From Eledone cirrhosa (Eukaryota): a stretch of 64,000 bases of DNA. The stretch spans positions 34,534,001 through 34,598,000 of the forward strand of contig OZ024746.1 in NCBI GenBank assembly GCA_964016885.1. The letters are read 5' to 3'. A model generated the notes under the pieces. It saw only the letters and a list, made by a program, of their open reading frames with translations, made no database searches and had not been told where the DNA came from. Position numbers and translations under genes: made by a program. Of this stretch, positions 11,326-63,475 are shown piece by piece (position 1 is the first letter of the stretch; each line of letters opens with the position of its first letter).

Positions 11326-11360
11326 CCTTAATTTTCGAGATAATATCTCTTCTTCGGAGG
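11326..11360 (-). ncRNA. Candidate ultra-minimal HHR in PLE2 pLTR (mirror copy at 14887-14921, + strand)
   Basis: CCT / CCGAAGA + extra A / GAGATA-t-TATCTC / GAAA / palindromic AATT / TTA / AGG. It has a U4C variant and a short stem I. Confidence 0.5.
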
Positions 11361-11733
11361 GAAGTAAAAGTCTCAGACCAGCGTCTAAATTTCCAATGAA
11401 GCCATGCTGACCGGAAATAGTATAGAGTTCTAACTTTAATATCAAAGAATTAAAATTAGGTGGGTAAAGAGTAGTCTCCCTTTAAGAGGGGTTTGTTTAT
11501 GTTTTTGTTGTGTTATGTACATTTTATATGCGTGCCTGTATGTGTGGGAGAAAGCATGAAGGTGTAGGTATGTGTGTGTGTGTGAGTGTGGGAAGATAGG
11601 TCTAATCGTAAAAGTGGGGGGTAGGTGTTATCTGGTGTTAGAACTGGTTTTGTGTGTGTATGTGTGAGAGAGAATAAGTGGGGGTGTGTGCGTGCGTGTG
11701 TGTGGGGTGTGTAAAGTGGGGCTAGAGGCCCTA

Positions 11734-13698: not shown

Positions 13699-13750
13699 TA
13701 TGAACTTGGGACCCAGGCTGAGGAGGTCTAATTCCTCTCGGGAGAGGTAA

Positions 13751-14513: not shown

Positions 14514-15034
14514 TAGGGCCTCTAGCCCCACTTTACACACCCCACACACACGCACGCACACACCCCCACTTATTCTCTCTCACACATACACACACAAAAC
14601 CAGTTCTAACACCAGATAACACCTACCCCCCACTTTTACGATTAGACCTATCTTCCCACACTCACACACACACACATACCTACACCTTCATGCTTTCTCC
14701 CACACATACAGGCACGCATATAAAATTTACATAACACAACAAAAACATAAACAAACCCCTCTTAAAGGGAGACTACTCTTTACCCACCTAATTTTAATTC
14801 TTTGATATTAAAGTTAGAACTCTATACTATTTCCGGTCAGCATGGCTTCATTGGAAATTTAGACGCTGGTCTGAGACTTTTACTTCCCTCCGAAGAAGAG
14901 ATATTATCTCGAAAATTAAGGACATTTAAATAAATTCAAGGTGAAAGACTAATTCTCACCAATATCTCTCACTATTGCATTCTTTTTCTATGTCCATATC
15001 TGCATTGTCTTGGCCTTATTACACATATTCTAAC

Positions 15035-15104
<70 letters not shown>

Positions 15105-15106
<2 letters not shown>

Positions 15107-15304
15107 CAAAGGAAATGTGGCAAGGAGCAGATGGACCATAACGCACCAAAGTACTCAATACTTAGGGTAGTAGAGTGGGTAGTAGGAACGAGTAGGACCC
15201 CGACGGCTGAGCTCAAGCCGTTTTGACGGCTAATTCTGGACTAAAGTTTTAGTCCAGAATTACCCGTCGAAACGGCTTGATCTCAGCCGTCGGGACCCTA
15301 CTCG

Positions 15305-15308
<4 letters not shown>
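15105..15308 (-). mobile_element. Short fold-back derivative of the PLE1-family pLTR
   Basis: Matches 10018-10158 in reverse, then folds back at CTGGACTAAA-g-TTTTAGTCCAG; lies in (TA)n. Confidence 0.85.
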
Positions 15309-19888: not shown

Positions 19889-19893
<5 letters not shown>

Positions 19894-20090
19894 ACCGAGT
19901 AGGACCGCGACGGCTGAGCTCAAGTCGTTTCGACGGCTAATTCTGGACTAAATTTAGTCCAGAATTAGCCGTCGAAACGGCTTGAGCTCAGCCGTCGTGG
20001 TCCTACTCGTTCCTATTACCCACTCTACTACCCTAAGTATTGAGTACTTTGGTGCGTTATGGTCCATCTGGTTCCTTACCACATTTCCTT

Positions 20091-20093
<3 letters not shown>
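19889..20093 (+). mobile_element. Short fold-back derivative of the PLE1-family pLTR
   Basis: Loop-less palindrome centred on CTGGACTAAA|TTTAGTCCAG (19952/19953). The right arm carries the 80-nt tail. Flanked by (TA)n. Confidence 0.88.
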
Positions 20094-28634: not shown

Positions 28635-28658
28635 GTGCCTTTTCTCTTCACCACCAAC

Positions 28659-31600
28659 ATGGCTATGCTAAGAGTAGGCTATTTAAATGCGCGTGGCCTG
28701 GGCTCAACTTGGAAGCAAGCAATGCTTCTAAATGACCTCAGGTCACAACGTATAGATGTGATGGTTATTTGCGAGGCCCGGATCAGCAACGTGCGACAGC
28801 TGGCCCCCACCTTTGATGACTTTGAGATGCACGCATCTCTCTGTCAGCCCGGAGGCGGGGGTGGAGTTGTCGTTCTGCTGCAAAAACATCTGGGTCTCGC
28901 AACACAGATGGTACATTTGGACCCGGAGGGTCGACTAGTGGTTCTGGACCTTGGCAGTGGTAAAGGCGGAGCGTTTAGGTTGGTAGCCGCCTACGGCCCT
29001 TTCGGGTCAATGCGGCCGGACTTCTTCCATCGTCTGGAGACTTTTCTAGGGACGTCCCGCTCCTTGCTATTAGTGGGGGACTGGAATGGTATCCTAGATG
29101 CACGCTGGGACTACGTAGGGGCCTGCCCCGATAGAGAGGGGTGTAATAGCCTCAAAGGGTTAATCGGTCGATTTGACCTGGCCGATAGATATCGACTAGA
29201 TTTTCCGACTGCGCCAACCTGGACTTGGGCAAATCGTAGCGGATCATCTAGGTCGTACCTAGATAGGTTCTTAGTTAGAATTAAGGATAAGGACTTTTTA
29301 AGTTGTCCAAAAATGCGCATGGTTGGCTATTCAGACCACAAATTAGTGACCTGCATGGTCAACCTTGACAGAACTCATAGACAGGGCCCCGGTTACTGGA
29401 AGCTCAACTTGTCCTTGCCGGCAAGTAGAGCCTACAGGAATCGGATTAGTACGTTAGTTAAGGAACGGTTGACTGGAGCGATCGTCAACAGCAGGTGGTG
29501 GGTATCTCTAAAGAGAGAGATTAGAGTAGTCTCGATAGAATTTAGTAAGGTTCTAGCTGCGGATAGGAATAGGAAGGAAAGGGAGCTAATAGATAGAGTA
29601 GAAGAGGCAATTAGAAGCGGCGACGTGGCCAGAGTGCTAGCGTCGAGAACGGCTTTGAGCCAGTTTTTCGACGCGAAGCACGAAGGCTGCGTTGTCCGAA
29701 GTAAAATACGTGCTCTAGGGAACGAGGGGACCAAAGCTGTTAGCTGGGCCCGCGTGACAGAGGCCAACAGTGGAACTAAATCCACCATCCGGTCTTTGCG
29801 AGACCTGGATGGACGAGCGATTCTTGAGCCTAAGCAGATGTGTGAGGCCTTTCAAAGGCACTTTGCCCGACTGTTCGGGAGGGGCGGGGAGCCGGTTGGG
29901 AACGTGGACTTCGGTCCATACCTCGACGGCCTGCCGCGCCTCTCGGACAGGGAGGCGAAGTCCTGCGAGGAGCCGATTTCGGCCGCTGAGATAGAGGACG
30001 TGCTGAGCCAATGCGGCAAACGCAAATCCCCGGGTCTCGATGGTCTTCCTTACGAATTATATCTAGCTATGCCGGACTTGTTCCCCGATCTCCTCGAGGT
30101 GGTCTACTGCAACTGGCAACAGAACGGGAGAATTCCCTGTACTGTGACCAAGGGCGTAGTCACGCTAGTGAGGAAGGACGAGAACAAGGGGGACGAAATA
30201 AGTAACTTCAGGCCCATAACACTGCTAAATACAGAGTTACAGATTTTGGCCAAGGTGCTAGCAAAGAGGTTGGCGCTTGTCGTGGGCAACCTGGTGGGAG
30301 ATGCGCAGACATGCGCTATCCCGTCCAGGTCCATCCATGACAACCTCCACCTCATGCGATACATCATAGAGAGGGTTGGGAACGAACCCGGCTTTGGTGG
30401 GGCTCTGATCAACTTGGATCAATCTAAGGCGTTCGATAGGGTCGACCATGGTTACCTGGATGCGGTGCTAGCGGCGGCAGGCTTCGGACCCGTTTTCAGG
30501 GGCTGGATCACTGCTATGCACAGCAGCCGCATCTGCTCTAGGGTCAAGGTGAACGGCTACCTCTCGGAGCCGTTCAAAATCGCGCGGTCCATCCGACAAG
30601 GGTGCCCTCTCTCCTCCCTTCTGTATGTGTTGACTCTCGAGCCACTACTGCGGAAGTTGGAGTTGTTGCAGGGCATCCCTTTGGAACCGGGATTGCGGAA
30701 AGCGGTGTCGGCCTACGCCGATGACGTGACAGTAATAGTGTCGACGGCCTCCGAAATCGAGGCGGTCGGCACCTTACTGGAGGAGTACGAAAAGTTCACA
30801 GGGGCTAAGCTGAACCGGGAAAAGTCGATCGGTTTGCAACTCGGCACGTGGAGGGGCAGACCGATGCCCTCCGATGGCGTCGTCGGACGCTGGACGGAGG
30901 GCCCGGTGAAGTTGCTCGGGGTCTGGTTCGGACCGGACCTCCAGGTGGAGAAAAACTGGGCGGAGGTTACGAACAGGGTGTTTGCACTGACCCAGAAGTG
31001 GGCCAGTTGCAAACTATCCCTGAAAGGTCGGGCGGAGGTGGCGAACACCTACATAGCGTCCGTCATCTACTACCGCCTGACCGTAGTGCCCTGCCCAAGG
31101 GAAACCCTCACCAAGATGGAGCGCGCGCTCTTCCAATTCCTTTGGAAGAGGCGGGCTCCTATGGTGAGGAGATCCATCTGCTGTCAACACCCTTCGAAAG
31201 GAGGGCTGGGGATGACGTGGCTAATGATGCGTAAACACGCATTAAGGCTACGGCACCTCTACGTATTCCTCACCGGACAACCGGCGTGGGCCTCGTTTGT
31301 GAGACGAACCTTTCCCAGACTCGTCTCACTCACCGAGCTGCAATCCTGGGTCAAGCAAAGACCGAGAAAACTGGGCGCCTGGCACACTGAGTGTGCCCAG
31401 GCGCTCACCGCCCTCTGGCAGGCGGATCCGGTTATCAGTGGAGACTCCACCGCAACATTCTATAGAGGGCTGGTGCGCAGCAAGTGCGACGACGCCCTCG
31501 GAGAAGCCCTAGACATGGAGGAGGACGAACTGGCCAGCCTGTTCGGTAGGACATTCAGCCCGGGACCTATGGACAACTTCCAGAAGTCCCTGGCCTGGCA

Positions 31601-32096
31601 GTGCTACCGAGGGGCTTTACCCGTTCGAGAAAGGCTCTACAGACACGGGCGCCCGGGTAGGGACCCCGCCAAAAAGATCTGTCCCAGATGCGTGTGCGAC
31701 GAGGAAACCGTTGCACACGCATTAGTACACTGCTCGGGCGTAGCCGATGTGTGGGGCTATGTCGAACAACTGCTGTCAAGGGTGGGACCGATCCGGTTGA
31801 CCACCGAGTCTATTGTAATGATCAAGCCGCCTCCCCCCTTCAAAGATGAAGCAGAGGCGGTGTTTCTGTACGTAATAGCCATGGCGAAAGAGGTTGTATG
31901 GTGGACGCGTCTGAAAGGACTGAGGTCGGGCACCTTTCTCTCTGGCCAACAACTGGTCCGTTTCTTCCGATATCATTTCGGAAGAAGGATCAGGATGGAG
32001 AGAGAGGTGCTGCACCCCAGCCGTTTCTATGAAAGATGGGTGAAAGTGGCGAGAATGGCCCGTGTGAATGGGCCTTCACTCTACATCAGACTATAG
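28659..32096 (+). CDS. LINE ORF2: APE endonuclease, RT, C-terminal zinc-finger region
   Basis: NARGL, GDWN, YLDR, SDH, KSPGLDG, DQSKAFD, QGCPLS, YADD, CPRC...ETVAHALVHC. The ATG at 28659 is in a CAACATGG context. Confidence 0.96.
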   Translation: MAMLRVGYLNARGLGSTWKQAMLLNDLRSQRIDVMVICEARISNVRQLAPTFDDFEMHASLCQPGGGGGVVVLLQKHLGLATQMVHLDPEGRLVVLDLGSGKGGAFRLVAAYGPFGSMRPDFFHRLETFLGTSRSLLLVGDWNGILDARWDYVGACPDREGCNSLKGLIGRFDLADRYRLDFPTAPTWTWANRSGSSRSYLDRFLVRIKDKDFLSCPKMRMVGYSDHKLVTCMVNLDRTHRQGPGYWKLNLSLPASRAYRNRISTLVKERLTGAIVNSRWWVSLKREIRVVSIEFSKVLAADRNRKERELIDRVEEAIRSGDVARVLASRTALSQFFDAKHEGCVVRSKIRALGNEGTKAVSWARVTEANSGTKSTIRSLRDLDGRAILEPKQMCEAFQRHFARLFGRGGEPVGNVDFGPYLDGLPRLSDREAKSCEEPISAAEIEDVLSQCGKRKSPGLDGLPYELYLAMPDLFPDLLEVVYCNWQQNGRIPCTVTKGVVTLVRKDENKGDEISNFRPITLLNTELQILAKVLAKRLALVVGNLVGDAQTCAIPSRSIHDNLHLMRYIIERVGNEPGFGGALINLDQSKAFDRVDHGYLDAVLAAAGFGPVFRGWITAMHSSRICSRVKVNGYLSEPFKIARSIRQGCPLSSLLYVLTLEPLLRKLELLQGIPLEPGLRKAVSAYADDVTVIVSTASEIEAVGTLLEEYEKFTGAKLNREKSIGLQLGTWRGRPMPSDGVVGRWTEGPVKLLGVWFGPDLQVEKNWAEVTNRVFALTQKWASCKLSLKGRAEVANTYIASVIYYRLTVVPCPRETLTKMERALFQFLWKRRAPMVRRSICCQHPSKGGLGMTWLMMRKHALRLRHLYVFLTGQPAWASFVRRTFPRLVSLTELQSWVKQRPRKLGAWHTECAQALTALWQADPVISGDSTATFYRGLVRSKCDDALGEALDMEEDELASLFGRTFSPGPMDNFQKSLAWQCYRGALPVRERLYRHGRPGRDPAKKICPRCVCDEETVAHALVHCSGVADVWGYVEQLLSRVGPIRLTTESIVMIKPPPPFKDEAEAVFLYVIAMAKEVVWWTRLKGLRSGTFLSGQQLVRFFRYHFGRRIRMEREVLHPSRFYERWVKVARMARVNGPSLYIRL

Positions 32097-35918: not shown

Positions 35919-38900
35919 TGGCGACCTACGTAGTAAATCGTATCATCGTGAGCTCCGCAAAGGTTTGTTATTTCCGTTTGTTAAAAATTGTCATTTATGG
36001 AAAATGTTATTGTTAACTGTTTATAAGCGCACATACATTGTTTTCCGAAAAGGACACCCAAAAAGATTGGGGCCTTGTGCCCAAAATTTAAACTTTTATT
36101 ATTATCAAAAAAATTTCTTTGAAAAAAATGGCTAATTCACCTCTGCACGAAGCAGCTGAAAGCCTTCCTCACAAAATAACACCTCACACCGACACCACCA
36201 TTGTAAATGTTACTACGTTTGCCAACACAAAAAAAAATATAAGCACTAGCAATATTTTAAATTTGTCTCAGGCAGACATTCATTTCCCGCCATTACCAAT
36301 GACTGCAGGTGTTAAAGCCTCCACCACCACCACCACCGCGACAACCACCACCACCACCACCACCACCGCGACAACAGAAACAAAAGAAGAAAAAAATAAA
36401 TTAACTCGTGATGTCAAAATAAAATCAAGCAAAATGGACTCTTCCCCACCAAAGACGACTGACGTCACCACCACCACAACTGAAACTAAAATTAATATTA
36501 ACACAAATAACGATAGCAACAACAACAACAATGACATTATAAAAACGCCCCTCAGTTAGAAAATGCCAGACAGATGGTAAAGAAAGTTGGGTACAGGGTC
36601 AGCCTCACCCCCCCCCCCCCACACCTAATAAAATGGAGCATCGGCGCCTATGCACCGTGTCGTATAGAACAATAAATGTAAAATCGCGCCGAGTGGAACG
36701 GGCATCCGAGTCCCATGGGACATGTGTGGGCAAGAAAAACCCACATCAAACGTGGGCAAAAGTATGGAACCGTGGACGTGTTCTTTGAAACACCAGAGGA
36801 GGCTAGAGAACACTCCATGGCCCCATTAAGAAGTGACGACTTCACACTCGTCCCAACCTATTGTGGCCAGAGACTCGTAAAGATCAGGGTGACCCACGTT
36901 CCACCGGCCATCGAAATTCCCTGGCTAATAGCGGCTGTCCTCGCCGGCATCGGAGCCAACACGAAAATAATAGCAATAGCAAAAGAAAAGCAGGAGAACT
37001 GGTCCGGATCTGAGATGGAGCTCCTGATCCAAGCGGACCAAAAAAGCATTGAGGAGATCCCAGAGGTAATAGACCTCACTGACGGCAGCCACCTCACGGT
37101 AATTGTCGAGGGCAGAAGACATAGGTGTGTCGTTTGTGGTGAAGGAACCCACCTAAGGGCTTTCTTCCCTCAGGCTAAAAGGTTGAAGCCACTTCTCCTA
37201 CCCACCCCAGTGACACAACCATCAACACCACCAGTAGCAGAAATGGCAGCAACAACTGTAGCAGCAACAAGAGAAGCAACTATAACAGCAACAACGCCGG
37301 CAACAGTAGCAAAACCACCACCACCACCACCACCAGCAAAACCAACACCACCACCAACCAACGCTTCAGAACTAGCACCAGCGCCTACACCATCCACCAC
37401 GCCACAACCAAAACTAACGGCTGTGGAGGATTTTCCACTCCCCGGCCTATCACAACTGGAGATAGATTGTGACGACGAGGAGTGGGAAACGATATCCGGA
37501 AAAAAAAAAGAAACCAAAAAAGAAAAAATTCTCTTCCTTCCCCCTCCAAAAACAAAATAGAGGGAAACAAATAAATTAAGAAACAAAAAAGTTAGGACAG
37601 ATATGCCACTATCCACACCAGCATCACCAACCCCATCAACCCAAACACCAACACCACCACCATCATTAACCCCAACACCACCATCACCTACACCACAAAA
37701 GTCACCAAAATGTGAAACAGAAACAACCCACAACAAACGCAAACAAAACAAAACAACCAAAACGATACACACTACACAGCATTAAATTTGAACAACAAGC
37801 AATTATTACACTACATCCAACACAACACCAGCATCACAGAAAAAGACTACACAACAACCCCAAAATTCACACCACCTCCACACATACAAATCACTCGCAT
37901 CACACAGAAAACGTACATGACACTAAAACAAAAATTCTCCAAAGACATCGGAGACTTCCGACAAGCACTCTCCAGGAGGATTTATAAGGACATCCTTCCT
38001 GAGGAGGCCACAAGCAGTGAAAAGGATGGAAAACCCGTCCTTCCCCTACGAGAAGTAAGGTAAGTGGTCTTTCCCCATCTTTTCCACTCCTTTTCAACAT
38101 GACCTCACTCAGAATAGGCAGCATAAATGCGCGTGGCTTGGGGTCGTCATGGAAGCAGGGCCACCTGCTCAACGACCTCAGGTCACTAAACATAGATGTA
38201 GTGGCCATCAGCGAGACCAGAATCTCCGAAGCACAGTCTTTCGCACCGATCTTCGGCGGCTACGATGTGTACGCATCTCCCAGCAGTCCGGGATCGGGGG
38301 GAGGAGTTGCTGTGCTTTTTCGGAGAGGTTTGGATCTTGCCATACGGGCCATCTTCCTGGACCCAGAAGGTAAGTTGGTGGTGCTGGACGTGCCAAGCTT
38401 TCAGGTTAGTGGCCGTCTATGCCCCGACAGGAGCAGGGCGGCCTGATTTCTTCCGGCGTCTGGAGACCTTTCTTGGAACGTCCCGCTCTTTAGTGTTAGT
38501 GGGCGACTGGAACGGGATCTTAGATGCACGCTGGGATTGTGTGGGATTAGTGGATAGGGAAGGTGGGTGCAAGAGTCTCACCAACCTGCTCAGACGTTTT
38601 GAACTGTCTGACAGGTACCGAATGGATTTCCCAAATGTACCAATGTGAACTTGGACAAATCGCATAGGGTCATCCAGATCATATCTAGATAGAGTATTTT
38701 GTAGGGAAATAGATAGGTCTAGCATAGGCTGTCCACAATTCAAGATAGTCAGCTACACGGACCACAAATTCGTGATTTGTGTGCTTGACTTAGATAGGCT
38801 TCATAGATGAGGACCCGGCTACTGGAAGCTAAACGCGTCCTTACCAGCGCGCAAGGCCTACAGAGACCGGATTAGCGAACTAGTTAAGCGGGCGTTGACG

Positions 38901-41755
38901 GGGGCCATCGTCAACAACAAGTGGTGGTTTGCTCTGAAAAGAGCAATTAGAATAGAGTCCATTAGGTTTAGTAAGACTTTAGCAATAGAGAAAAATAGAG
39001 CAGAGGGAGAATTAGTTAGAAAATTAGATGAGGCGCTTAGCAAAGGCATCGCGACCGACGTACTTGCGGCGAAATTGGCCCTTGACCAATTCTTCAATGC
39101 AAAGCACGAAGGCTGCGTTGTCAGAGCTAGGGTGCGTGCTCTCAGACACGAGGGGACGAAAGCCGCTCAATGGGCCCGAGTGGCGGAGGCGCGTCGTGGC
39201 AACAAAGCCACGATCCGGTCTTTGGTGGACCACGACGGGCGCATGCTACTCGATCCCGGGCAAATGTGTGAAGCTTTTCAGCGACACTTCGCTCAACTGT
39301 TCGGGGGCAGTGGCGGGCCGGATCGAGGGATGGACTTTAGTGTCTACCTCTACGGACTGCCACGGCTTTCGGCCACTGAGGCGGAGTGTTGCGAAAAGGC
39401 TATAACAACCGCTGAAGTACGGGATGCAATGACTAGTTGTACAAGGGGTAAATCGCCTGGTTTAGATGGTCTGCCCTATGAACTTTACGTACAAATGCCA
39501 AACTTGTTCGGAGGCCTCTTGGCGGACGTCTACTGCAACTGGCAACAGAACGGGAGAATTCCCAGCTCTGTGAGCCGAGGAGCGGTGGCGCTGCTGAGAA
39601 AGGATCCGAACAAGGGGGATAACGTAGATAAGTTTAGGCCCATAACTCTGCTAAACACAGAGTTCAAGATTTTGGCCAAGGTGCTAGCAAAGAGGTTGGC
39701 GCTTGTCGTTGGTGGTCTGGTGGGAGAGGCACAGACATGCGCCATTCCCGACAGATCCATTCACGACAACCTCCACCTCATGCGATACATCGTAGAGAGG
39801 GTAGCTAGGGAACCTGGCACGGGTGGGTCTTTGATCAATTTAGATCAGTCGAAAGCCTTCGATAGGGTCGACCATCGTTACCTAGCGGCAGTCCTGAGGG
39901 CGGCTGGCTTTGGGCCCGTCTTCAGAGGCTGGATCGCTACCATGCACAGCGACATCTGCTCTGTAGTGAGAGTGAACGGTCACCTTTCGGAACCGTTCAA
40001 CATCATGCGCTCGGTCCGCCAAGGATGTCCCCTCTCGTCCCTATTGTACGTATTGACTCTCGAGCCATTACTGCACAAACTGGAGACGTTGAGGGGGGTC
40101 CCGCGCGAACTAGGATGCGGAAGATCCGTGTCAGCATATGCCGACGATGTCACCGTAGTGGTGTCGAACGCCAAACATATCGAGGCGATCGGCACTATAC
40201 TAAGAAAATACGACGCGGTGACAGGAGCAATGATGAACCAGGAAAAGTCAGTGGGCCTGCAGCTCGGCACCTGGAGAGGCAGGTCCATGCCGTCCAACAG
40301 CGTCGTCGGGCGCTGGATGGACGGACCGGTTAAATTGCTAGGGGTCTGGTTCGGTCCAGACCTCCAGACGGACAAAAACTGGGACGAGGTGACGAGCAGG
40401 GTGGCTTCTCTCACCCAGAAATGGGCCGAGAGGAAGCTATCCCTGAAAGGTCGAGCAGAGGTGGCTAACGCGTACATCGCGTCCGTCATCTACTACCGCC
40501 TGACCGTCGTACCTTGTCCTAAGCCTCACTTGACTGCGCTGGAGCGTTTGCTCTTTCGCTTCTTGTGGAAGGGACGCGCTCCGATGGTCAGGCGGTCCAT
40601 CTGCTGTCAACACCCGCTACGTGGAGGGCTAGGCATGCCGTGGCTGATGATGCGCAGACACGCGCTCAGGCTACGACATCTCCACCTCTTCCTCGACGGT
40701 GAACAGGTGTAGTCGCCGTTTGCTAGACACGTTTTTCCCCAGCTGGTCTCCTTGACGGAGCTGCAGTCCTGGGTCCAGCGAAGACCGAGAGGGAGCGCTT
40801 GGAGACTGGAATGTCTTCAGGCGCTCACAGCCCTCGACCAATCGGGAAATGTGATCGGTGGAAACTCCACCTTGGCGTTCTATAGGGGATTAGTGGAGGG
40901 GAAGAGCGACGACGTACTTGGAGAAACTCTAGACGTCGACGAAAATCAACTAGCCAATCTCTTCGGAAGGACTTTCGGGCCGGGGCCTATGGACAACTTC
41001 CAGAAATCCCTGGCCTGGCAGTGCTACCGGGGTGCTTTGCCAGTTCGGGATAAACTTTACAGGCATGGAGGTGCCGTCAGCCGGGCATGTCCGAGATGCG
41101 CACAGGGCGACGAAACCGTCCTGCACGCACTCGTCCAGTGTCCGAGCATTGCTGACCTGTGGATTTATGTCGAACACCTTCTGTCACGTGTAGGACGGAT
41201 CGAGCTATCAGCTGAGTCCATCGTGAGGATTGCCCCGCCCTCTTCCTTTAGCCAGGAAGGGCAGGCAGTTTTTATCTGCCTGGTGGCCATGGCGAAAGAG
41301 ATAGTATGGTGGACACGTTTGAAAGGGCTGAAGACGAGCACTTACCTCTTCGGTGATGCCCTGATTAACTTTTTCAAATTTCATCTGAAAAGGAAAATCA
41401 GGGTAGAGGGGGAAGTGCTCTCTTCCCAGCATTTTGTTGAAAGATGGGTGAGAGAAGCAAGTATGGCCCGAATAAATGGGCCTTCTCTGAGTATGTGTCT
41501 GTAAATTAAAGGTGGAAAACTGGGAGAGGGCACTTGCCCTGGTGGTCAGGGCCACTGTGGTCTTTTAATGGGCTTTCTCCACAAATGTCCCTCGGAAGTC
41601 TCCCCCCCCCCCCCCTTATTGGGGAATGTTTCTTTGTTATTTTATTTCATCCTCTGTTTTTTTACACGCAGAAATGCCCATTTGTACCGTCCTGTATTGT
41701 CCTGTACTGTCTTTAATGTCTACTTTATGTAAACCCTTGTGGTTAATAAAGAAAA

Positions 41756-47246: not shown

Positions 47247-48170
47247 TAATCTACGAAAGACATGCTACATTAGAATACGATGGATATATGTGAATGTGTA
47301 TTTGTAGTACATGTATCTATAAGTGTGTGTTTTTAAAATGCGGCGAGGAAATGAAAGCATATGTAATGTAATGTGTAGATAGTAGTACACACACACACAC
47401 ATACTCACACACACACATGAACACATACACACACGCACATATACGCACACACGCACTCATACACACACATATATGTACAAACATACATATGCCACCAAGC
47501 TGCAAAATCACACATATATGCGTATGTATAATAAGGTGTGAATAGCATTTCCATACACGGCGTCATCACTTAACAATTGTGAGCAAAGTTAACACACAGT
47601 CTCACATAATATAATATCTTTAACTTATCACGCTACAACAGAAGTTAAGTTACCGTTTCATATAAGCAGCCAGCCAAAAATTTAACAAGGTGTAATTTAC
47701 GTGGTTATCACTGACAACTCACACTACAGTATGAGGTTTGCATTTTATTTCACTTTGACACCAATAACGACATGTTTCCTGACGTCATGTGTGAGTGTTT
47801 TCACGCTCTAATCTTTCCAAATCTGAATATCGTGGCTGCCATAACAGCAGAGAATATAATTACTATGCACTGTCGATATACAACGAAACCATTATTATTG
47901 TGAGATTTGTTTAGTCAAAGTGTCTATCACAATTCGCCTCAAGGATTTTTCTCTCTTTATTCAACTTCATATATATGTATATATATACACCCCCCCCCCA
48001 CTCATATATATATCTATATATATAAAAGAAATATGATTTCGCTTCAAGCATAGCTTTATACAATATGTATAAATATTTCGTATCTCCAATGAAATACGGT
48101 TTTAGGAAGCCGTAGCTATGCAAACAACGTTAACGCCGTCTGGTGATGTCCAGTAGAAGCAAGGGGGACA

Positions 48171-48214
48171 ACCGTCTATGCATTTCAGACTTAACTGGCC
48201 TTCGTCAGGACGGT
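48171..48214 (-). ncRNA. Minimal type I HHR
   Basis: Stem I ACCGTC/GACGGT, core CTGACGA, stem II AGGC-cagttaa-GTCT, GAAA, palindromic ATGCAT, ATA triplet. Confidence 0.88.
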
Positions 48215-48493
48215 CCCTCCCACCGGTTGCGACTGCTGGACTAGAAGACAGCCGAGCATATATACATTTCTCGTCTGTGTAAATGAGGTGATTAATCTCA
48301 TTTGCATATGAAGCTGCATAAGTTGGCTCAACTTATAATAAAAAAGAAATAGGATTTCGCTTCAAGCATAGCTTTATACAATATGTATAGATATTTCGTA
48401 TATCCAAGGAAATACGGCTTTAGGAAGCCGTAACTATGCAGACACCGGGGGGCTATCGCCCTCTGGTGATGTCCAGCAGAACCAAGGAGGACA

Positions 48494-48537
48494 ACCGTCT
48501 ATGCATTTTAGGCTTAACTGGCCTTCGTCAGGACGGT
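48494..48537 (-). ncRNA. HHR, second unit; GAAA changed to AAAA (probably inactive)
   Basis: Same as 48171-48214 but with a G12A change. Confidence 0.75.
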
Positions 48538-48934
48538 CCCTCCCACCGCTTACGACAGCTGGACTAGAAGACAGGCGAGACAAAATACTATTCTCGTCTG
48601 TGTAAATGAGGAGATTAATCTCATTTGCACATGAAGCTGCATAAGTTGGCTCAACTTATAATAAAAAAGAAATAGAATTTCGCTTCAAACATAGCTTATA
48701 CAATATGTATAAATATTTCGTATCTCCAAGGAAATCCGGTTTTAGGAAGCCGTAAATATGCAAACACCGGGGGGCTAATATATATACGAAGATAGATGAA
48801 CGAAAGGAGAGAAAGAAACGGAAAACTTTTTATGGAAACTGCCTGTATGTGAATCAGCCATTTTAGGAAGCCCTCCCGCTACATTCTCTTTTTGTTGTCA
48901 GCTAATGCATGTGGGATGCTTTTTCTACTATAGT

Positions 48935-52984: not shown

Positions 52985-53610
52985 AGCCATCGGGCTTTAA
53001 CACTGGCTTAAAGTGTTTGAAAGTTGCAAAGTTCTTGTGCATGCATTTCGGGCAGTGTTCAGAGAGTTTGTTCAGTAGCGGGCCCTCGGCGAATAAAATT
53101 TCGTAGCTCTCTGAAATACAAAGGTTGCAGCCCTTGTGTCCTCCGTTGTAAGAGCGCGCTTTCTGGAGTATTTTCCATTTAAGCGTGAAGGGGGTGGAGT
53201 TCCTTTTGAGGTCCCAAACGTAGGAGGCGAGTGTTGTCTGATTTGATTTGTCCGGTCATCTGAAGGAGTGGGTATGGGCATACCAACGGGTCTTAAAGTT
53301 GTTGAAGGTCATGCCGATGTAAGTTTTTTTGCAATCCTCGGTGCCCGAGATGACATCGCATTTGTATACGATATCATTTGTGAGGCATTTGTTTTCCAGT
53401 GGGCATGCTTCCTTATTTAGGCAATTACGTAGAGCCCAGTCCGGGGATTGGGTTCGGAGATGGTTGGCTTATTTAATTTTTTAGATTTGTGGTTGGCTAT
53501 ATTCCTAGCTAGGTTAGGTGTGGTGGAGTAAGACAGTCTTGTTGTGTTCTTATTAAAGATGGTGTGGTACCTATGTTGTATGGGGAAGTGTAATTTCAGC
53601 AAAGTGAAGA
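52985..53610 (-). pseudogene. PLE 3' fragment (linker + GIY-YIG), related to PLE1
   Basis: FPIQHRYHTIFNKNT, CPLENKC, IVYKC...YIGMT, CNLC; contains a frameshift and a stop. Confidence 0.85.
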
Positions 53611-53817
53611 AAATATATATATATTGACTGAAAAAATAGATATATATATTGACTGAGCGGAAAAGAGCAAAGTTCATTATTGAAAGTCTCTGGATTTCAC
53701 AAAATATATTCATTCTTTATAAAAATTAATTTATAGCATTCTATATGTAGGTGGGCCCCTTCATCTCCTGGCAAACATTATTTTTAGACCAAGTTCGCCA
53801 CTATATATATATACAAA

Positions 53818-55056: not shown

Positions 55057-55058
<2 letters not shown>
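54838..55058 (+). mobile_element. Solo PLE1-family pLTR end with a mutated HHR (54869-54965)
   Basis: Collinear with 9941-10158. The core reads CTGAGAA (C3/A8 mismatch) and the stem I 3' arm is GGTGT. Confidence 0.85.
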
Positions 55059-55127
<69 letters not shown>

Positions 55128-55147
55128 TATTACATATATATTATTAT

Positions 55148-56047
55148 ATAAATTTCATTTCCCACTCCTAGTACGGCTGTTACTTAAATATAAGTATGTA
55201 CACGTACATACATATATGTATACAGACATACAGTAGTATGTATATATATATACATACATGCACACATATATATATATGTACGGATGGATTCACCGAACAT
55301 TTATTATAATGCTCGGAGTGTTTGTAAACAAGCATCCCGTATTAAGCCGTAGTGTCCAGCAACCATCGTTGCTCGTTTGTTCAACACTGACAAAGGAACG
55401 CTGTACTACTTTCAAGCTTATTAGCTATCATCAGCAACGTATACCTTCCTGCCAGATTGTTGAACGTATATACTTACCTTATGCATATTAACGGCTGAGT
55501 AGCCCAATTTGCATATCGAGTGGGTTAATCGGCCGGGTGCACCGAATACGATAAACAGGAAAAATGAAACGAAATTTCATTTGCCACTCTTAGTACGACT
55601 GTTACTTAAATATAAGTATGTACACGTACATACATATATGTATACAGACATACAGTAGTATGTATATATATATACATACATGCACACATATATATATGTA
55701 CGTATATGTATACATATATATATGTATACAGACATACAGTAGTATGTATATATATATACATACATGCACACATATATATATGTACGTATATATATACATA
55801 CATATATATATATACGTATATATACATATATATACATACATATATATATGTACGTATATATATACATACATATATGTATACAGACATACAGTAGTATGTA
55901 TATATATATACATACATGCACACATATATATATATGTACGTATGGATTCACCGAACATTTATTATAATGCTCGGAGTGTTTGTAAACAAACATCCCGTAT
56001 TAAGCCGTAGTGTCCAGCAACCATCGTTGCTCGTTTGTTCAACACTG
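55148..56047 (-). repeat. Head-to-tail partial dimer of a retrozyme-like unit, related to the 466-bp family
   Basis: AAATTTCATTT.CCACTC.TAGTACG recurs near 55151 and 55572. HHR and octamer are on the - strand. Confidence 0.85.
55398..55440 (-). ncRNA. Minimal type I HHR
   Basis: Stem I ACGTTG/CAGCGT, CTGATGA, tAGCT-aata-AGCTt, GAAA, AGTAGT (one change from ACTAGT), GTA. Confidence 0.82.
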
Positions 56048-56173
56048 GACACTACGGCTTAATACGGGATGTTTGTTTACAAATACTCCGAGCATTATAA
56101 TAAATGTTCGGTGAATCCATACGTACATATATATATGTGTGCATGTATGTATATATATATACATACTACTGTA

Positions 56174-57020
56174 CGAAAAAGCCCAGTATTACAATGAAGC
56201 GTTAGCTAGAGCAGGATATAGTGATAAAATTATGTACATAGATAATAATAGACAAACTAACCAAAATAACAACAATTTTAATTACGGCAACAACTTTAAC
56301 AACTATAATAGAAAGCATTACAATAATTCCAAAAGCCAAAAAAGAAATAGAACTAGGAATATAATATGGTTTGCCCCCCCTTTCTCACTAAACATTAAAA
56401 CCCACATCGCTAAACTATTTTTTAATGCTCTTGATAATCGCTTCCCTAGAACACATAGGTATCACTCAATTTTCAATAGACCTACTATAAAATTAACTTA
56501 CTCATCCACCAAAAATTTTGCACAAAATATTAATAGAATAAATAATAGGAATTTAAAACCTAGCCAAAATACCGATAATAGCATAAATAATATCCAAGTA
56601 AACAAATGTAACTGTAGAGATAGATCTAAATGTCCGTTAAATAACAATTGCTTAGTTAAAAATATTATATACAACTGTAATGTTAAAACGGACTTAAATT
56701 CTTTTAACTATGTTGGTTCCACCTCGACAGAATTTAAACTTCGCTATAATAACCACAAGCATTCTTTCACAGATCCAAGCAAAACATCTTTAACATCACT
56801 ATCAGGCTTACTCTGGCAACTTAAGCATGATAACTTGGATATTCGACGGCTTGGAATATAGTCTCAAGAGGGATTCCTTTTAATTCATCCTCTGAGACAT
56901 GTGACTTCTGCGCGGAGGAGATATTCTTTATACTAAAATCTAAAAATTCCCTTAATTTACGGACAAATTTATTCAGTTGCTGCAGACATAGATTGAACTC
57001 AACTTTTAAATATAAATATA
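56174..57020 (+). pseudogene. PLE 3' fragment (RT end, linker, GIY-YIG), AT-rich, frameshift near 56845
   Basis: YYNEALARAGY, RNIIWFAPPFS, CNCRDRSKCPLNNNC, IIYNC...YVGST. Confidence 0.88.
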
Positions 57021-58044
57021 AATTTTAAATGTAGTATATTTACTTATGTTTTATAATTATTTATGAAACTCGCCGATAAATCTTTCGATTTCTTTTTTTT
57101 TTTTTTAAACATTCTTCATGAATAATTAGACTACCCTAAAAGCTGATGCTCCAAATATATCGAATAAAGTTTACACTAGATAAACTTCTATAATAAATAT
57201 AAGACCATCTGTAGATCAAATGGGTATCCTAAACTTTTGGAATGATTTCTGCTAGACAGGATTTGGTAAATAATTTTGGTTTTGTTTGCTTTTGATTCTG
57301 ATGCTTATAATGAACTTGGCAATATATTGTCAATTAATTTTGAAGGTTTGATCTCTGTGGTTGATTTGCGGGGCATACTGTGTTTTATTTTTAATAATTT
57401 TTAACTTTTTAATATTTTTATTGATATATTGATATCTGTTGTCTATTTATGCTTTAACGATAATCATGTAGAGTAAAGACAAGAATAGTATTGTTAAAAT
57501 TAAAGTAGATTCTATATATATTTGTGTGTATGTACACATATATGTATACTAGAATTTTTATAGCACAATGAGAATGTTTTCATGTGAAATAGGAATTTGC
57601 AGAGTTGATCACGTAAATTCACATGGAAGTCTATAGTATCGAATCTGGGATAACCTTCTATTTTCTTTTTCTTTTTCTTTTTTCATGAAAGTGCATATAT
57701 ATTTATGTATTTCAATTTTTTTTCAAGTTTTTTATCTCAGTTTTTTATCTCAGTTTTTTATCTCAGTTTTTTTATTTCATTTTTACTCCGTTCTGATATA
57801 AACCTAGGAATTTTAAACTAGACATATGATCATTATTTTTCACACATTATTGATACGTGTCTCATTCATGAATACTGATATTTACATTATAATACCTAAT
57901 TCATACGAATTGATATTTTTACATTGATGAAACATAATGTTTTAAATCTGCCTCGTTTATCTCTGGATATTTTTCTTTTCTCTCTATGTAACGGCTGTTT
58001 TCTCTCCTAACCACATATATCTCTCTCTACCTTAATACTAGAAC

Positions 58045-58075
<31 letters not shown>

Positions 58076-58156
58076 ATATATCATTGATACGTCATTCAAC
58101 TGGTGCCCAACTACCTATTTTCTTTCTCTCTATCTCTATCTATATCTATCTCTCTC

Positions 58157-58251
<95 letters not shown>

Positions 58252-58514
58252 ATCCCTCTGTGTTTTTTCTCTCTCTATCTATCACTCTCTGTTTCTTTAC
58301 ATGAATTTCTTCTCTCTATCTATCTCTCTATATCTATCTCTCTCTGTTTAGTTGCATGCATTTCTTCTTTTTCTTCGCTTTTTTTCTTTTTTTTTCTTTC
58401 TTTCTTTTTATAACTGTCCCTAACATTTTTCACTACCAAATCAACTTTTTAAATGGAAGTTGAAGTTGTAAGGTATGTCAAATCTATCTATTTATAAGAC
58501 TGTTTATATTGTAG

Positions 58515-58572
58515 TTTGTCTGAAGAAGGCATACCATATTTTTAATATGATATCCCTGAAATATATATAATG
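58515..58572 (+). ncRNA. Eroded HHR, probable pLTR end of the 56174 PLE
   Basis: CTGAAGA, 14-bp stem II AGGCATACCATATT/AATATGATATCCCT (2 mismatches), GAAA, ATATAT. Stem I register is unclear. Confidence 0.5.
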
Positions 58573-58617
58573 AAATAAATATGGTTTTATAAATATAGTT
58601 TCCATTTATTTAATATC

Positions 58618-58646
<29 letters not shown>

Positions 58647-58653
<7 letters not shown>

Positions 58654-61600
58654 ATACTTGGGGAGGGTCATATTTGCGTAATATTGCCAGAATTAATAAC
58701 AGAACACACTCACTGTTTGGTTGGTTTTCGCTTCTCGCTGTCTTTTATATCTGCAATCTAACTTACTCGGTCCTCAATGTTGCCATTGACTGACCGACGG
58801 TCAAAAATAATACAGATACAATATAGACACAAACACATATATATAGTTTACATAATTTACATAAATCTTTCGGTGCACATCTGCAACATCGTCAGTGGTG
58901 TTATATTCTTTGTTCCTCCTGTTGTGTTGTATGTCTACGCCATTTTTTTATTCAGTCTGTCTATATATTTATTTATTTATTTGCTTGTTTGTGTATCTTA
59001 TATTATTTTGTCTTCTTTGCGCATGCGTTTGCGTGTGTGCATAGTGTTATGTGTGCTGTGTGACTAGTGTGTATAGTGTTGTGTCTGCTGGGTGACTAGT
59101 GTGTGTTTATGTGCTTGTTGTTATTGTGCTTGTGTATGTATTTATTTATCTTATTTTATTTTATTTTATTTACTTATTTATATTTCTCTTAGGTCAGTGT
59201 TGTTTGTTTGGGTGTTGTTGTTGTTCCACTCATTCTATCTGTTTAGCTTTGGTCTTCTAATTTCTATTTCACTGGCCTCTCTGATTTGCCTATCTGCTGG
59301 GTCATTCCTATGTTTAGATATTATTCTAATTTCTATGTTGTCTATGTTACCGTCATGTTGTTGTCTAGCATGTTCGTATAGTACTGACTTGTTTGTTCGT
59401 CCTTTTAGTTCCCCCCAGTGTTGGTCTATCCTTTCACCTATGCTACGAGCTGTCTCACCTATGTATGATGTTGTCATGTTTCTGAAAGTACCCTCTGTAC
59501 ATCTTATGCTATAGATTACGTTTCTAGTTTTACAGTTTATCCGGGGGTTCACCTTACATATGATACATTTCCTATTGGTACAGTGGGTTTTCTTAAAAGG
59601 GTAAGTTTCGCTGATCAGGGATTTTATGGTGGTTCCTGGCTTTTCTACCACCTTTATGTTTAAGTGGGTCTTTCTCAGGGCCTTTCTACACTGGTTAGCT
59701 AATTTCCCTCCAGGGGTGGCGTCCACAAACATGACACTCTGATATCTCTGGTTGTCGTACCATGATGTGGCCTTCCCTATCTTATGTCTAGCCCTATCTA
59801 AGCTATTCCATGATTTGCTCCTGCATAGTGGGCAAATTCCTTTCATGTCCAGTTCTATGAGGGTCTTATACTTTTCCATGGCTCCTTCGTATACTCTGAC
59901 TCTGTCTCTTTGGTTGTAGCCAGAGAACTGCATGCGGTTGATGCAGTGTTGGATGTGTCTTTCCATTTCTGTTGGGTCGCACATGCTGGACACATTCTTC
60001 ATCACTCGTACCAAATCTGCGATCAGAATATTAAACTTAGCACTACTGGACATTGCTGAGTTTTTGAGTATCAGGTATTTGGAGGCCATGGGTTCAGCAT
60101 AGTGTGAGTGGAGAATTTGGGCTCTCTCGTCTATAGTGTTAATCCAGAGTTCTGTGTCTAATACCGGTAGTCTATTGTTAGGGTGTTTGGAAGGGAAGTC
60201 GATAGTTACAGTTATACTCTGGTGTATGGAATTAGCTATCTGCTGGATGCTTTCCAACGTGCTACGTTCTAAATCAAACCTGTTAATGCTCTCTAGTGGG
60301 GATGTTCTTATAACTATATTGATATCGTCTACATAACGAGAGTACATGATGAGGTCTATGGAGCTTTCATTAAGGAGATCTTTAAGTCTCCTTTCCCACC
60401 ATACCATGAAAAGGTTGGCAACATCACCAGCTATGCTGACGCCGATGGCTGCTCCCTCATTTTGGGTGTAGATTTTCTCATTGAACTTAAATATGTGGCC
60501 CTTTAGGGTAGTTTTGATACTAGCCCCTATTGCATGTGCGACAATTTTTCTTACCTGATCAGTCTTTTGGGGGGTCCGTATAGCTTTGGTCCACCCAATC
60601 CACCTTCCTATGGGAGTCTTTTTAGCCATTGAGGTTATGGTGGGGGGTCTACCTCTTATATGTCTACTAGGGCAGAAACATCTAAGGTCATGGCTGTCTA
60701 GGTAGTCAGTGTCGTAGGTAAGTTTAAGTAGGAGGCCCAGTTCATCTGTGTCGACGTCGCAGAACTCCACTTCACTCTCAATGATCATCTCCACACATCT
60801 TTTCACAGCAAAATCAATGTTAATGGATGGGTACAGTGACACCACATCCATACTGCCTATTATGCAGTTGGATAGGCTCCTGTTTTTGTTGCACTCACTG
60901 ATTCTGCTGAGAAGGTCCTCTGTACTTTCACATACATATGGGGACATCTTGATTATGGGGCGTATAACCATTGAGAGGAAGTAGGAGATCCTGTAGTTGC
61001 TAGCTATATTAGCTCCGCATACGTGTCTTATTGGTGGTCCTGTTGTCGGGTCGTCGACTGTCTTGTGGTCTTTGCAGAGCCCATACAAGGGTGGTATGCC
61101 ATTGTTAGACGCCTGGAAGTTGTTGGCAGTGCGTCTGCTTGGCTTTAGGATGTCAGTCCACATCATCATGTGAGCGTTGAGGATTTTTTCTCTCCCATCA
61201 TGTGTTTGTTGTGCAACCTCGCTCGTGTTGGTGATGTGGGGTTGCATAGCCTCGATGTAGTTCGGCATGCTATCTATTGACATCCTACCAGACTTATCTG
61301 TGGGTAGACACACTACCTCACCATCCGTTGTGCGCTGCTTGAGGCTAACCAAGCCTTCTACATGTTTTCTCCCAAGTTGTTGGGCTTCTGGTCTGCTCTG
61401 TCTCATAGTATACCTGTCTACTACTTGTCTAATCTTATTTCTAGCTATGGTGCACTGTGCCTCCGTCTCGTCATCTATTTGCTGTGGTATGCAAACTCTT
61501 TTATTAAAGGGTAACCTCGTAGGATAGATATTACCCATCTTATATGTTTTGTCAGCTGGGTTGAAAAATAGTTTCTCTAAGGGGTCGTCGTTATATCTAT

Positions 61601-62528
61601 CGTCATAGTTGTGTGTGTTGCTATTATTGCTATCATGGTGGTTGTTGTTGTTTCTATCATTAGCATTATTATTATTGTTATGATTGCTAGATGTATTGTT
61701 GTTTACTTCACCGTTATTGTTGTTGTTGTTACTGTTATTTCTACCATTGTGGTTGTTACTATTATTATGTTTCTTGTTTTTGTTGATGTTGCTACATGTA
61801 CTATTTCCATTATTACCACTGTGGTTATTGTTGTTGTTGTTCGTATTGTTACCGTTATTACTACTGTGGTCACTGTCGCTGTGTCTGTGGTTAACGTTTC
61901 GATTATTATTATTATTGTGGTTGTTGTTGTTCCGTCTATCGCTAGTATTATTGCCATTATCACTATTTCTCACTTTCCTGCCATTGTTATGGTTATGGCT
62001 GTTATTTCTATACCCAGAGTTATTGTTTATATTACTACTACCGTTATTATTGTTGTTGTTGTTTACCTTTGCATTCCAACGTATTTTTGTGAAACACTTT
62101 TCCAGCTCCGTTTTGCATTCCATAGGGTTAATCTTTTTGTAGATGGCAAATGTTGGTGGTAACCTTAGGATTTGTTGTTCTTGTTCACTGATTAAAGTGT
62201 TCCCATAGATATTTACTGTGTGGTCATTGGTAAATTCTTCCGGTAGTTTTACATCAGTCATACGGATATTGTCGATGATATCTGGGTATTTTTGAGAATA
62301 TTCGATTTTCCTTTCTTGTAGTTTTTTCTTGTTCATCCATTCTAATTTCTTCTTGAAATGCCTACAGGATTCGTTTCGAGCGTATTTCGTTTCGCGTCGG
62401 ATGACGCTCATGAAGTCATCTCTCTCGTTTGCTGTGATGAGATTTCGGATTTCCTTACCGTTAATGCGTTTCTGTTATTAATTCTGGCAATATTACGCAA
62501 ATATGACCCTCCCCAAGTATAACAATAT
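58647..62528 (-). mobile_element. Penelope-like element 3 bounded by 58-bp inverted repeats
   Basis: 58647-58704 is the reverse complement of about 62470-62527. Confidence 0.9.
59235..62411 (-). CDS. PLE RT + GIY-YIG (1058 aa) with an Asn-rich insert
   Basis: PTDKSG, KDHK, MDVVSLYP, GAAIG, RYVDD, LPVLD, C-X4-C-X2-C linker, VIYSIRC...YIGET. Confidence 0.9.
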   Translation of the reverse strand: MSVIRRETKYARNESCRHFKKKLEWMNKKKLQERKIEYSQKYPDIIDNIRMTDVKLPEEFTNDHTVNIYGNTLISEQEQQILRLPPTFAIYKKINPMECKTELEKCFTKIRWNAKVNNNNNNNGSSNINNNSGYRNNSHNHNNGRKVRNSDNGNNTSDRRNNNNHNNNNNRNVNHRHSDSDHSSNNGNNTNNNNNNHSGNNGNSTCSNINKNKKHNNSNNHNGRNNSNNNNNNGEVNNNTSSNHNNNNNANDRNNNNHHDSNNSNTHNYDDRYNDDPLEKLFFNPADKTYKMGNIYPTRLPFNKRVCIPQQIDDETEAQCTIARNKIRQVVDRYTMRQSRPEAQQLGRKHVEGLVSLKQRTTDGEVVCLPTDKSGRMSIDSMPNYIEAMQPHITNTSEVAQQTHDGREKILNAHMMMWTDILKPSRRTANNFQASNNGIPPLYGLCKDHKTVDDPTTGPPIRHVCGANIASNYRISYFLSMVIRPIIKMSPYVCESTEDLLSRISECNKNRSLSNCIIGSMDVVSLYPSINIDFAVKRCVEMIIESEVEFCDVDTDELGLLLKLTYDTDYLDSHDLRCFCPSRHIRGRPPTITSMAKKTPIGRWIGWTKAIRTPQKTDQVRKIVAHAIGASIKTTLKGHIFKFNEKIYTQNEGAAIGVSIAGDVANLFMVWWERRLKDLLNESSIDLIMYSRYVDDINIVIRTSPLESINRFDLERSTLESIQQIANSIHQSITVTIDFPSKHPNNRLPVLDTELWINTIDERAQILHSHYAEPMASKYLILKNSAMSSSAKFNILIADLVRVMKNVSSMCDPTEMERHIQHCINRMQFSGYNQRDRVRVYEGAMEKYKTLIELDMKGICPLCRSKSWNSLDRARHKIGKATSWYDNQRYQSVMFVDATPGGKLANQCRKALRKTHLNIKVVEKPGTTIKSLISETYPFKKTHCTNRKCIICKVNPRINCKTRNVIYSIRCTEGTFRNMTTSYIGETARSIGERIDQHWGELKGRTNKSVLYEHARQQHDGNIDNIEIRIISKHRNDPADRQIREASEIEIRRPKLNR

Positions 62529-62589
62529 CTGTTTCGACATACGATTTCATATAAAAAACCTCGCTAAACTAATTCATCGCCGCTATATA

Positions 62590-62661
62590 TATATCTATAT
62601 ATATATATGTAAGTATGTATGTATATGTACATACATATATGTATACAGACGTACAGTAGCA

Positions 62662-62721
<60 letters not shown>

Positions 62722-63126
62722 CATATATGCACGCATGAGTTTAGCGGACGCTTATTATAACGCCGCTTTGTTCGTTTGTAAACAAACTGAACAGCCTGAA
62801 TTTATGCCATACGGTGTTAAGGCAACCACGTCACCTTTTTTTTTTTTTTTTTTTTTCGTTCAACACTGACACAGGAACGATGTACTAGTTTCAAGCTTGA
62901 TAGCTATCATCAGCACCGTATACCCATCTGCCAGACAGTTGAACGTTCGAAAGTATATACTTTCCTTATGAAAATTAACGGCTGAGCAGCCTAATTTGCA
63001 TATTGAGTGAGTTAAATCGGTCAGGCATACCGAAAACGATAAGTTGAAAATATACATACATAAGTTACATTTAAGTAAGTGCCATACTAAGAGTGAGAAA
63101 TGAAATTTCGTTTTCATTTTTTTCAA

Positions 63127-63131
<5 letters not shown>
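62590..63131 (-). repeat. Retrozyme-like monomer of the 55-kb/466-bp family with a short 5' inversion
   Basis: Collinear with about 55190-55555. HHR and octamer (62994-63001) are on the - strand. Confidence 0.82.
62877..62919 (-). ncRNA. Minimal type I HHR
   Basis: Stem I ACGGTG/CATCGT, CTGATGA, tAGCT-atca-AGCTt, GAAA, palindromic ACTAGT, GTA. Confidence 0.87.
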
Positions 63132-63187
<56 letters not shown>

Positions 63188-63198
63188 TTAGAAATTAG

Positions 63199-63384
63199 AA
63201 GCTTTCACCGTATTTTAGACTAAAGAAATTTCTAGCCTGATAGTGGGGTTTATAACCCTCGGAGAAATGGAAAAACATGAGTGTTGCCGTACATGGCAAC
63301 ACTCATCTTTTTCCATTTCTCCGAGGGTTATAAACCCCACTATCAGGCTAGAAATTTCTTTAGTCTAAAATACGGTGAAAGCTT
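63199..63384. repeat. Near-perfect hairpin, 90-bp arms, 6-nt loop
   Basis: 63199-63288 is the reverse complement of 63295-63384 with about one mismatch; adjacent to (TA)n. Confidence 0.93.
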
Positions 63385-63475
63385 ATATATTTCTTATTTC
63401 TAATTTTGAAACTCGCGCACCGTTTCAAAAACATACTTACATGTTTACATTTATAATTTGCTTGTTTATATATAT

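Follow-up and report, generated by a model that had tools for sequence, protein, structure and literature searches.

At the locus described here, the minus strand carries about 1.57 monomers of a hammerhead retrozyme (55150-56047). Via an inverted copy of a part of itself, this retrozyme is connected to a 5'-truncated Penelope-like element (PLE), and it occupies the place that an inverted partner takes at other PLE 5' ends of the window. All positions refer to the window, i.e., the complete stretch of 64,000 nucleotides of Eledone cirrhosa DNA that was analyzed. Retrozymes, Hydra PLEs and inverted PLE junctions are already known, while the retrozyme-PLE fusion at this site is a real junction that varies a known insertion pattern; it is suggestive and does not amount to proof. 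In our preferred reading, the arrangement stems from one PLE-driven insertion into (TA)n in which both target ends were primed on two different RNAs, and we assign this reading a probability of about 0.5.

The retrozyme cassette and the PLE fused to it

The following features are referred to throughout (coordinates, strand, description):

55058..55149, no strand: (TA)n/AT-rich tract, left end of the cassette and likely target
55150..56047, minus: retrozyme, about 1.57 x 422-nt monomer plus 236 nt of extra TA-rich repeat units
55379..55465, minus: type I hammerhead; stem I is extended, the core is at 55434, and cleavage is predicted between 55404 and 55403
55887..56017, minus: left arm, the portion mirrored by the inverted copy (+45 to +175)
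56018..56044, no strand: unmirrored loop of 27 nt, containing most of a 6-bp hairpin (+30 to +45)
56045..56047, no strand: CTG microhomology at the strand switch, 3 nt common to the forward copy and the inverted arm
56045..56173, plus: right arm, a retrozyme copy of 129 nt that shares the orientation of the PLE
56174..57028, plus: 5'-truncated PLE ORF of the Hydra clade with the end of the RT thumb, CxCx5C linker and GIY-YIG endonuclease
57029..57640, plus: PLE 3' UTR, with multi-copy read coverage up to 57640, the end of the checked portion
57641..58618, plus: presumed remainder of the PLE 3' UTR, by analogy with other PLE ends, with a hammerhead-like sense motif at 58520
58619..58649, no strand: (TA)15, presumed right end of the cassette, common to the 3' end of the next PLE
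6720-7186, 13751-15037, 62470-62525, 15248-15307 and 19892-19953: head-to-head PLE pairs

With a period of 422 nt, a GC content of 37.9% and 1.57 copies, the retrozyme unit lies within the range given for non-coding tandem units (about 150-450 bp, GC below 50%). After subtraction of the 236 nt of extra TA-rich units, the left cassette measures 662 nt, which equals 1.57 monomers; on the monomer scale its 5' end lies at +15 from the cleavage site and its 3' end at +254. The core and stems I and II of a type I hammerhead are recognizable (fold z -3.0); a cut at the predicted GUA site on the minus strand would make 55403 the first base past it. A G at 55409 breaks stem III in this copy. The copy at 62913 has a C at this position, as do the family reads, whose palindromic stem III is intact. 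There is a single hammerhead in 55150-56047, as compared with the two consecutive units with complete hammerheads by which Li et al. define active elements; what is seen here is a truncated offspring. With Rfam, a score was obtained for the related array at 1-1872 alone, and this was below the gathering score, the focal hammerhead being left unscored; miRNA matches of Rfam in the window were discarded as TA-repeat noise. Read depth of the retrozyme family was 21-25x that of the PLE ORF (runs X12 and X1). A scan of metagenome contigs for the retrozyme motif gave 0 matches.

Several further retrozymes are located in the window. The array at 1-1872 consists of four 100% identical 466-nt units with an HH9-like hammerhead (38.9 bits, below gathering); it is very young and runs off the window. 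An older minus-strand array at 48024-48777 comprises 2.4 copies of a 323-nt unit with 90% identity and has one hammerhead without GAAA. A second retrozyme subfamily is represented at 62609-63128 (82% identity over 185 nt). Its sense arm reads from about +261 through the hammerhead to about +219, and its inverted arm (63050-63128) covers about +195 to about +270; each arm stops where the other begins, with overlaps of 12-13 nt, and together they amount to approximately one monomer. Such an arm pair is what twin priming on circular RNA would be expected to leave. A run of about 22 A occurs in the same element on the minus strand, 26 nt past the cleavage site (62834-62856).

The two arms at the focal junction, 55887-56017 and 56045-56173, are reverse complements; over 131 columns they are set apart by a single substitution and a TA indel of 2 nt. 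Position 56047 is equivalent to 55389, one monomer away, and thus to +15. The preliminary description had placed the start of the retrozyme at 56047, 14 nt past the point of hammerhead cleavage, and had described a switch through CTG microhomology into an inverted copy of about 130 bp; the +15 position with its 14 missing nucleotides as well as the arms and the shared CTG were found accordingly. Unlike the primed ends, the end of the right arm at 56173 is not accompanied by a (TA)n tract. Four runs with low coverage yielded no read or contig across either junction among the matches listed, and the joints 55940/57523 and 55971/56055 seen in reads were dismissed as repeat artefacts.

The PLE ORF carries one frameshift near 56835-56860. 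Its product is 40% identical to PLE protein P0002 over 220 aa (E 1e-45), the homolog search returned three proteins with 34-40% identity, and a Pfam search of two PLE peptides gave no match. The 5' truncation removed the RWK and DKT motifs together with the RT core. Inspection of the translations by eye revealed the CxCx5C linker, a C-terminal GIY-YIG domain and CxxC as well as CxH, which flank conserved E and N, but no CCHH. Judged from these motifs by eye rather than from a tree, and following the clade criteria in section 11 of PMC8557442, the truncated PLE is assigned to the Hydra clade. Contigs of related PLE copies align only from 56180 onward and extend upstream by 243 letters of other sequence. 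Because they diverge upstream of this position, the PLE start can be placed at 56174-56180 and the fusion is specific to this locus rather than a feature of the family. The PLE frame starts right past the arm, in agreement with the direct fusion of the inverted copy to a 5'-truncated PLE that had been proposed. From the codons, 0-1 nt of microhomology is expected at this joint, the homologs being too distant to fix its letters. On the other side, analogy with other PLE ends suggests that the PLE ends at 58618, past the hammerhead-like motif at 58520 and ahead of (TA)15; the fold of this motif is not significant (z -0.11), and read coverage was checked to 57640.

The retrozyme shows no detectable similarity to five PLE 3' UTRs of the window, so that the mobilizing family is not named by sequence. 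Compared with 57026-58618 it scored 21 against a shuffle mean of 22, and the inverted partner does not originate from the PLE's own 3' end; a TA-rich match at 57513-57551 was discarded as low complexity. A role of the retrozyme as pLTR of the focal PLE was ruled out on the basis of the lacking 3' UTR similarity and of the family contigs that run upstream into other sequence.

An inverted copy of the element's own 3' end, arranged head-to-head, accompanies five other PLE insertions in the window, those given in the last line of the list. Three PLE pieces (54837, 63614 and 53614) are devoid of an inverted partner, and two of them, 54837 and 63614, join non-TA sequence. As partnerless pieces can join such sequence, direct fusion is no proof of a single event. 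Independent elements cluster at the same (TA)n tracts within the window.

Further PLEs, at least three types among four elements, are found at 7187-10157, 11210-15037, 58650-62525 and 53031-53614, and an open PLE frame of 1079 aa (59235-62474) contains an asparagine-rich insert resembling those described in PMC3846280. Two PLE 3'-end stumps (15106-15307 and 19892-20093) are palindromes with loops of 0-2 nt, the short arms of which stop where the inverted copy at 6720 does, 80 nt before the end of the long arm. Long palindromes at 1907-2210 (86%) and 63181-63403 (95%) adjoin (TA)n, and a relative of the first resides at 10954-11117. Three LINE copies of about 70% identity with endonuclease-RT frames were also observed (21529-24266, 28635-32096 and 38095-41504), the second with an open frame of 1153 aa.

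A proposed single insertion primed on two RNAs

The window contains five retrozyme 3' ends, and each of them has a (TA)>=3 tract no more than 6 nt away; the background for such a tract within 5 nt is 3.1%. One of them falls inside the retrozyme's own TA-rich part. The other four precede the next cleavage site by 168, 167, 170 and 159 nt, the monomers measuring 323-466 nt, and none coincides with a cleavage site. These ends, at 55150, 1872, 48024 and 63128, stem from three retrozyme families; all adjoin (TA)n and map to a GAAAT...TTTC hairpin or to a position just beyond it. The hairpin region about 159-170 nt upstream of the cleavage site is therefore put forward as a candidate internal priming site, and the 3' ends, though small in number, fit the internal priming chemistry of PLEs. 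In the one PLE system that has been purified, from Anolis, the protein nicks AT-rich DNA on both strands and extends them, initiates cDNA synthesis within the RNA at a stem-loop and can dispense with ribozyme cleavage, its main template being unprocessed RNA (PMC11167929). Hydra PLEs insert into (TA)n (PMC8557442).

A rare allele informs on the source of the inverted arm. At 55975, all three retrozyme pieces (monomer 1, monomer 2 and the right arm) have an A, while T is present in 8052 of 8108 first-mate-plus reads of run X12 and in nearly all contig depth of runs X1, X2 and X5; the allele of the window accounts for less than 1% of the family reads. Since it is common to the three pieces, the inverted arm and the left cassette must have a common origin, be it one molecule or one source locus, and the arm does not stem from a random RNA of the family. 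The monomers differ at 5 of 301 sites (0.5-3.9%) and the arms at 1 of 129 (0.02-4.3%), and the PLE deviates from the family majority at no fewer than about 14 near-fixed sites out of 1461 (0.5-1.6%; 40 of 285 rows considered). Going by these values, with their wide intervals, the ages of retrozyme and PLE appear compatible. Identity within other inverted or tandem pairs of the window ranges from 100% to about 86%. The differences of monomer 1 were rejected as a date for the inversion: 55990, the one that falls in the portion compared with reads, is not among the differences listed, and they look private to this monomer.

In contrast to several neighboring elements of the window, no (TA)n spacer is present at 56173/56174, and a retrozyme remnant was not found in 56174-62583. 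The lack of (TA)n at the joint between arm and PLE, the lack of a remnant and the compatible ages favor a single event. Counting against it, a target-site duplication is unreadable in (TA)n, where both cassette ends lie, the PLE 3' end beyond 57640 is placed by inference, and none of the listed reads or contigs spans the junctions.

While the anatomy of the sequence, the common source of the three retrozyme pieces, the clade of the PLE and the pattern of ends are established, the course of events is a model. A single insertion could have proceeded in four steps. First, the PLE protein would nick both strands, as nicking and extension of both strands are established for another PLE. Second, the left 3'-OH would prime cDNA synthesis on retrozyme RNA at the internal hairpin 168 nt upstream of the cleavage site; this cDNA would read through one hammerhead, on a circle or uncleaved multimer, and halt at +15 within the long stem I. 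Third, the right 3'-OH would prime cDNA on the RNA of a Hydra PLE, with a halt at 56174-56180. For the fourth step two routes can be envisaged that are inseparable from sequence. Either the retrozyme cDNA snaps back via CTG/CAG, copies 129 nt and is joined to the PLE cDNA, or it is the PLE cDNA that changes template: it jumps at +175 onto the retrozyme RNA already in use and copies back to the hairpin at +45, after which the two cDNA ends anneal via CTG/CAG; self-cleavage would not be required. Snap-back copying has been described at R2 5' junctions, on cDNA or, less often, on nearby target DNA (PMC11371274). The jump, on the other hand, would explain why each of the two 5' ends coincides with a helix of the RNA, namely extended stem I for +15 and the 6-bp hairpin for +45, and why a 3-nt match was used despite nearby 5- and 6-nt snap-back matches. 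In its full form, which we regard as doubtful, one PLE RT copied PLE RNA and then jumped to retrozyme RNA and copied it. A second active site, starting at the opposite target end, would have used this same retrozyme RNA as its template and gone round a circle, and the retrozymes of this genome would have their priming site inside the RNA, about 160-170 nt ahead of the ribozyme cleavage site. If true, the partner PLE clade (Hydra) and the structure by which the retrozyme recruits the RT would be identified by such fusions.

The preliminary description had explained the locus by a self-cleaved retrozyme RNA, a 5' inversion of the PLE type and co-integration with PLE cDNA. The marks typical of PLEs (TA-rich 3' end, head-to-head inversion, microhomology joint), the filled place of the partner and the missing remnant support the inversion of the PLE type; co-integration is a likely rather than a demonstrated part of this explanation, as a nested insertion would give the same sequence, and the self-cleaved template is its weak part. 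As a single locus, the fusion is compatible with the pasting of retrozymes by PLEs and provides a lead rather than proof of arrival in the same event.

Alternative readings

It is possible, without being the expected course, that two events took place: the retrozyme would have inserted alone as a head-to-head pair of a long left and a short right arm, and a Hydra PLE would later have hit its TA-rich right end, which was trimmed to 56173. A nested insertion of this kind gives an identical sequence, and an inverted arm that is not joined to any PLE is seen at the retrozyme of 62609-63128. Moreover, the right arm stops in a TA-rich hairpin, which Hydra elements would target, independent insertions cluster at (TA)n in the window, and 5' ends of partnerless PLEs can adjoin non-TA DNA. 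However, several neighbors have the (TA)n spacer that is missing at 56173/56174, the absence of the displaced remnant makes a deletion necessary, and the PLE is not visibly younger than the retrozyme. Were there two events, PLE machinery would probably still have made the retrozyme copy, while the fusion would carry no information on one RT copying both RNAs.

A further proposal concerns the template and is a sub-case of either the one-event or the two-event reading, exclusive of neither. In its strict version, the template was a linear RNA with a 5' end generated by hammerhead cleavage and an uncleaved internal ribozyme; reverse transcription proceeded to this 5' end, and trimming then removed 14 nt. 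We consider this unlikely. With 1.57 monomers the template was longer than one unit and thus a circle or a partly uncleaved multimer. The 5' end at +15 does lie close to the site, a position within 17 nt being expected by chance in 4% of cases under a uniform model with a distance chosen post hoc; yet +15 is inside the extended stem I, where an RT could stall. A further strand-switch joint at 56044/56047 (+18/+15) is represented by 80 reads of run X12, but these have a single start and ambiguous orientation, and a hot spot at this position would be explained just as well by a stall. A hammerhead was read through in making the copy, and its cleavage could have been blocked by the stem III change if this was already in the template; the change may, however, post-date the insertion, and which site it blocks in a dimeric hammerhead appears ambiguous (PMC4209133, with our own inference). 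A 4-nt match would have been available to an intact cleaved end at the site in question, but it remained unused, and the 3-nt match at +15 was taken. The count of retrozyme 5' ends near the cleavage site that the preliminary description had called for genome-wide was carried out for the window: the start of the 323-nt family at +45 is in favor of the strict version, whereas the finding of only two of the four independent ends within +45 (P 0.065) counts against it. The PLE of Anolis needs no cleavage (PMC11167929). The earlier claim of a self-cleaved RNA is thus weakened by the hammerhead that was read through, the better match left unused and the location of +15 in a stem.

Still less probable is a repair scar, i.e., a plain tandem retrozyme that was hit by a PLE and whose upstream target end snapped back and copied 129 nt as DNA, with the rest being lost. 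Snap-back of target DNA has been seen at R2 5' junctions (PMC11371274), and the lower divergence of the arms (1/129 vs. 5/301 for the monomers) has the direction expected of a younger arm, but this difference is not significant (P 0.37). A break at +15 is not TA-rich, unlike the target of Hydra elements, the upstream part of the retrozyme is missing on the far side, and the 3-nt match that was used is weaker than nearby 5- and 6-nt snap-back options. An assembly or long-read fold-back artefact is very improbable, even though no listed read or contig spans the junctions and the region is rich in simple repeats, as the arms differ by a substitution and an indel, the mirror ends after 129 nt and gives way to a different element, and the same head-to-head design occurs at other elements in the window.

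Comparison with known systems

The mobilization of metazoan retrozymes by PLEs has been proposed from co-occurrence, shared ribozymes and pLTR phylogeny (PMC7229834; bioRxiv 10.64898/2026.07.22.740005; see also PMC11722881 for a proposal on indirect grounds), in line with the preliminary description, in which the published case was regarded as mostly indirect. The focal element resembles the metazoan non-LTR retrozymes (Cervera & de la Pena 2020, PMC7229834; Li, Clavereau & Pollet 2026) with respect to its non-coding, low-GC tandem unit, 422 nt here, its type I hammerhead, its very high copy number and its location beside PLEs. It differs in that the copy is physically fused to a PLE and has ends of the PLE type, that no similarity to local PLE 3' UTRs was detected, and that a single hammerhead with a changed stem III is present. 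A search of the largely open-access literature found no retrozyme-PLE chimera.

An inverted 5'-truncated partner is a known design of endonuclease-bearing PLE insertions, for which capture of other sequences in trans has also been described (Arkhipova group, PMC3846280; Craig et al. 2021, PMC8557442). The head-to-head arrangement, the near-palindrome at the junction, the microhomology joint and the AT-rich target are shared with the locus studied here, whereas the partner is a separate non-autonomous RNA and is not enclosed by pLTRs. With the Poseidon PLE of Anolis studied in vitro (Frangieh et al. 2024, PMC11167929), the locus has in common what would be nicking and extension of both strands at AT-rich DNA, an internal start at a stem-loop and independence from cleavage; that element belongs to another clade, and neither a foreign RNA template nor junction formation is known to have been reported for it. 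The snap-back and extra-template 5' junctions of R2 (PMC11371274) are similar with regard to fold-back copying from the cDNA 3' end.

For the question of which enzyme spreads animal retrozymes, marks at the level of a junction constitute a different kind of evidence from the published case for PLEs. If head-to-head retrozyme-PLE fusions and a fixed internal priming site hold genome-wide, a candidate enzyme, a Hydra-clade PLE, and a candidate RNA signal would be named. L1 twin priming and U6-L1 chimeras provide a precedent for a non-coding RNA fused to the cDNA of a retroelement, the extra RNA being collinear with L1. In contrast to these L1-type chimeras, most of the retrozyme at the focal locus is located on the opposite strand and has its own primed end.
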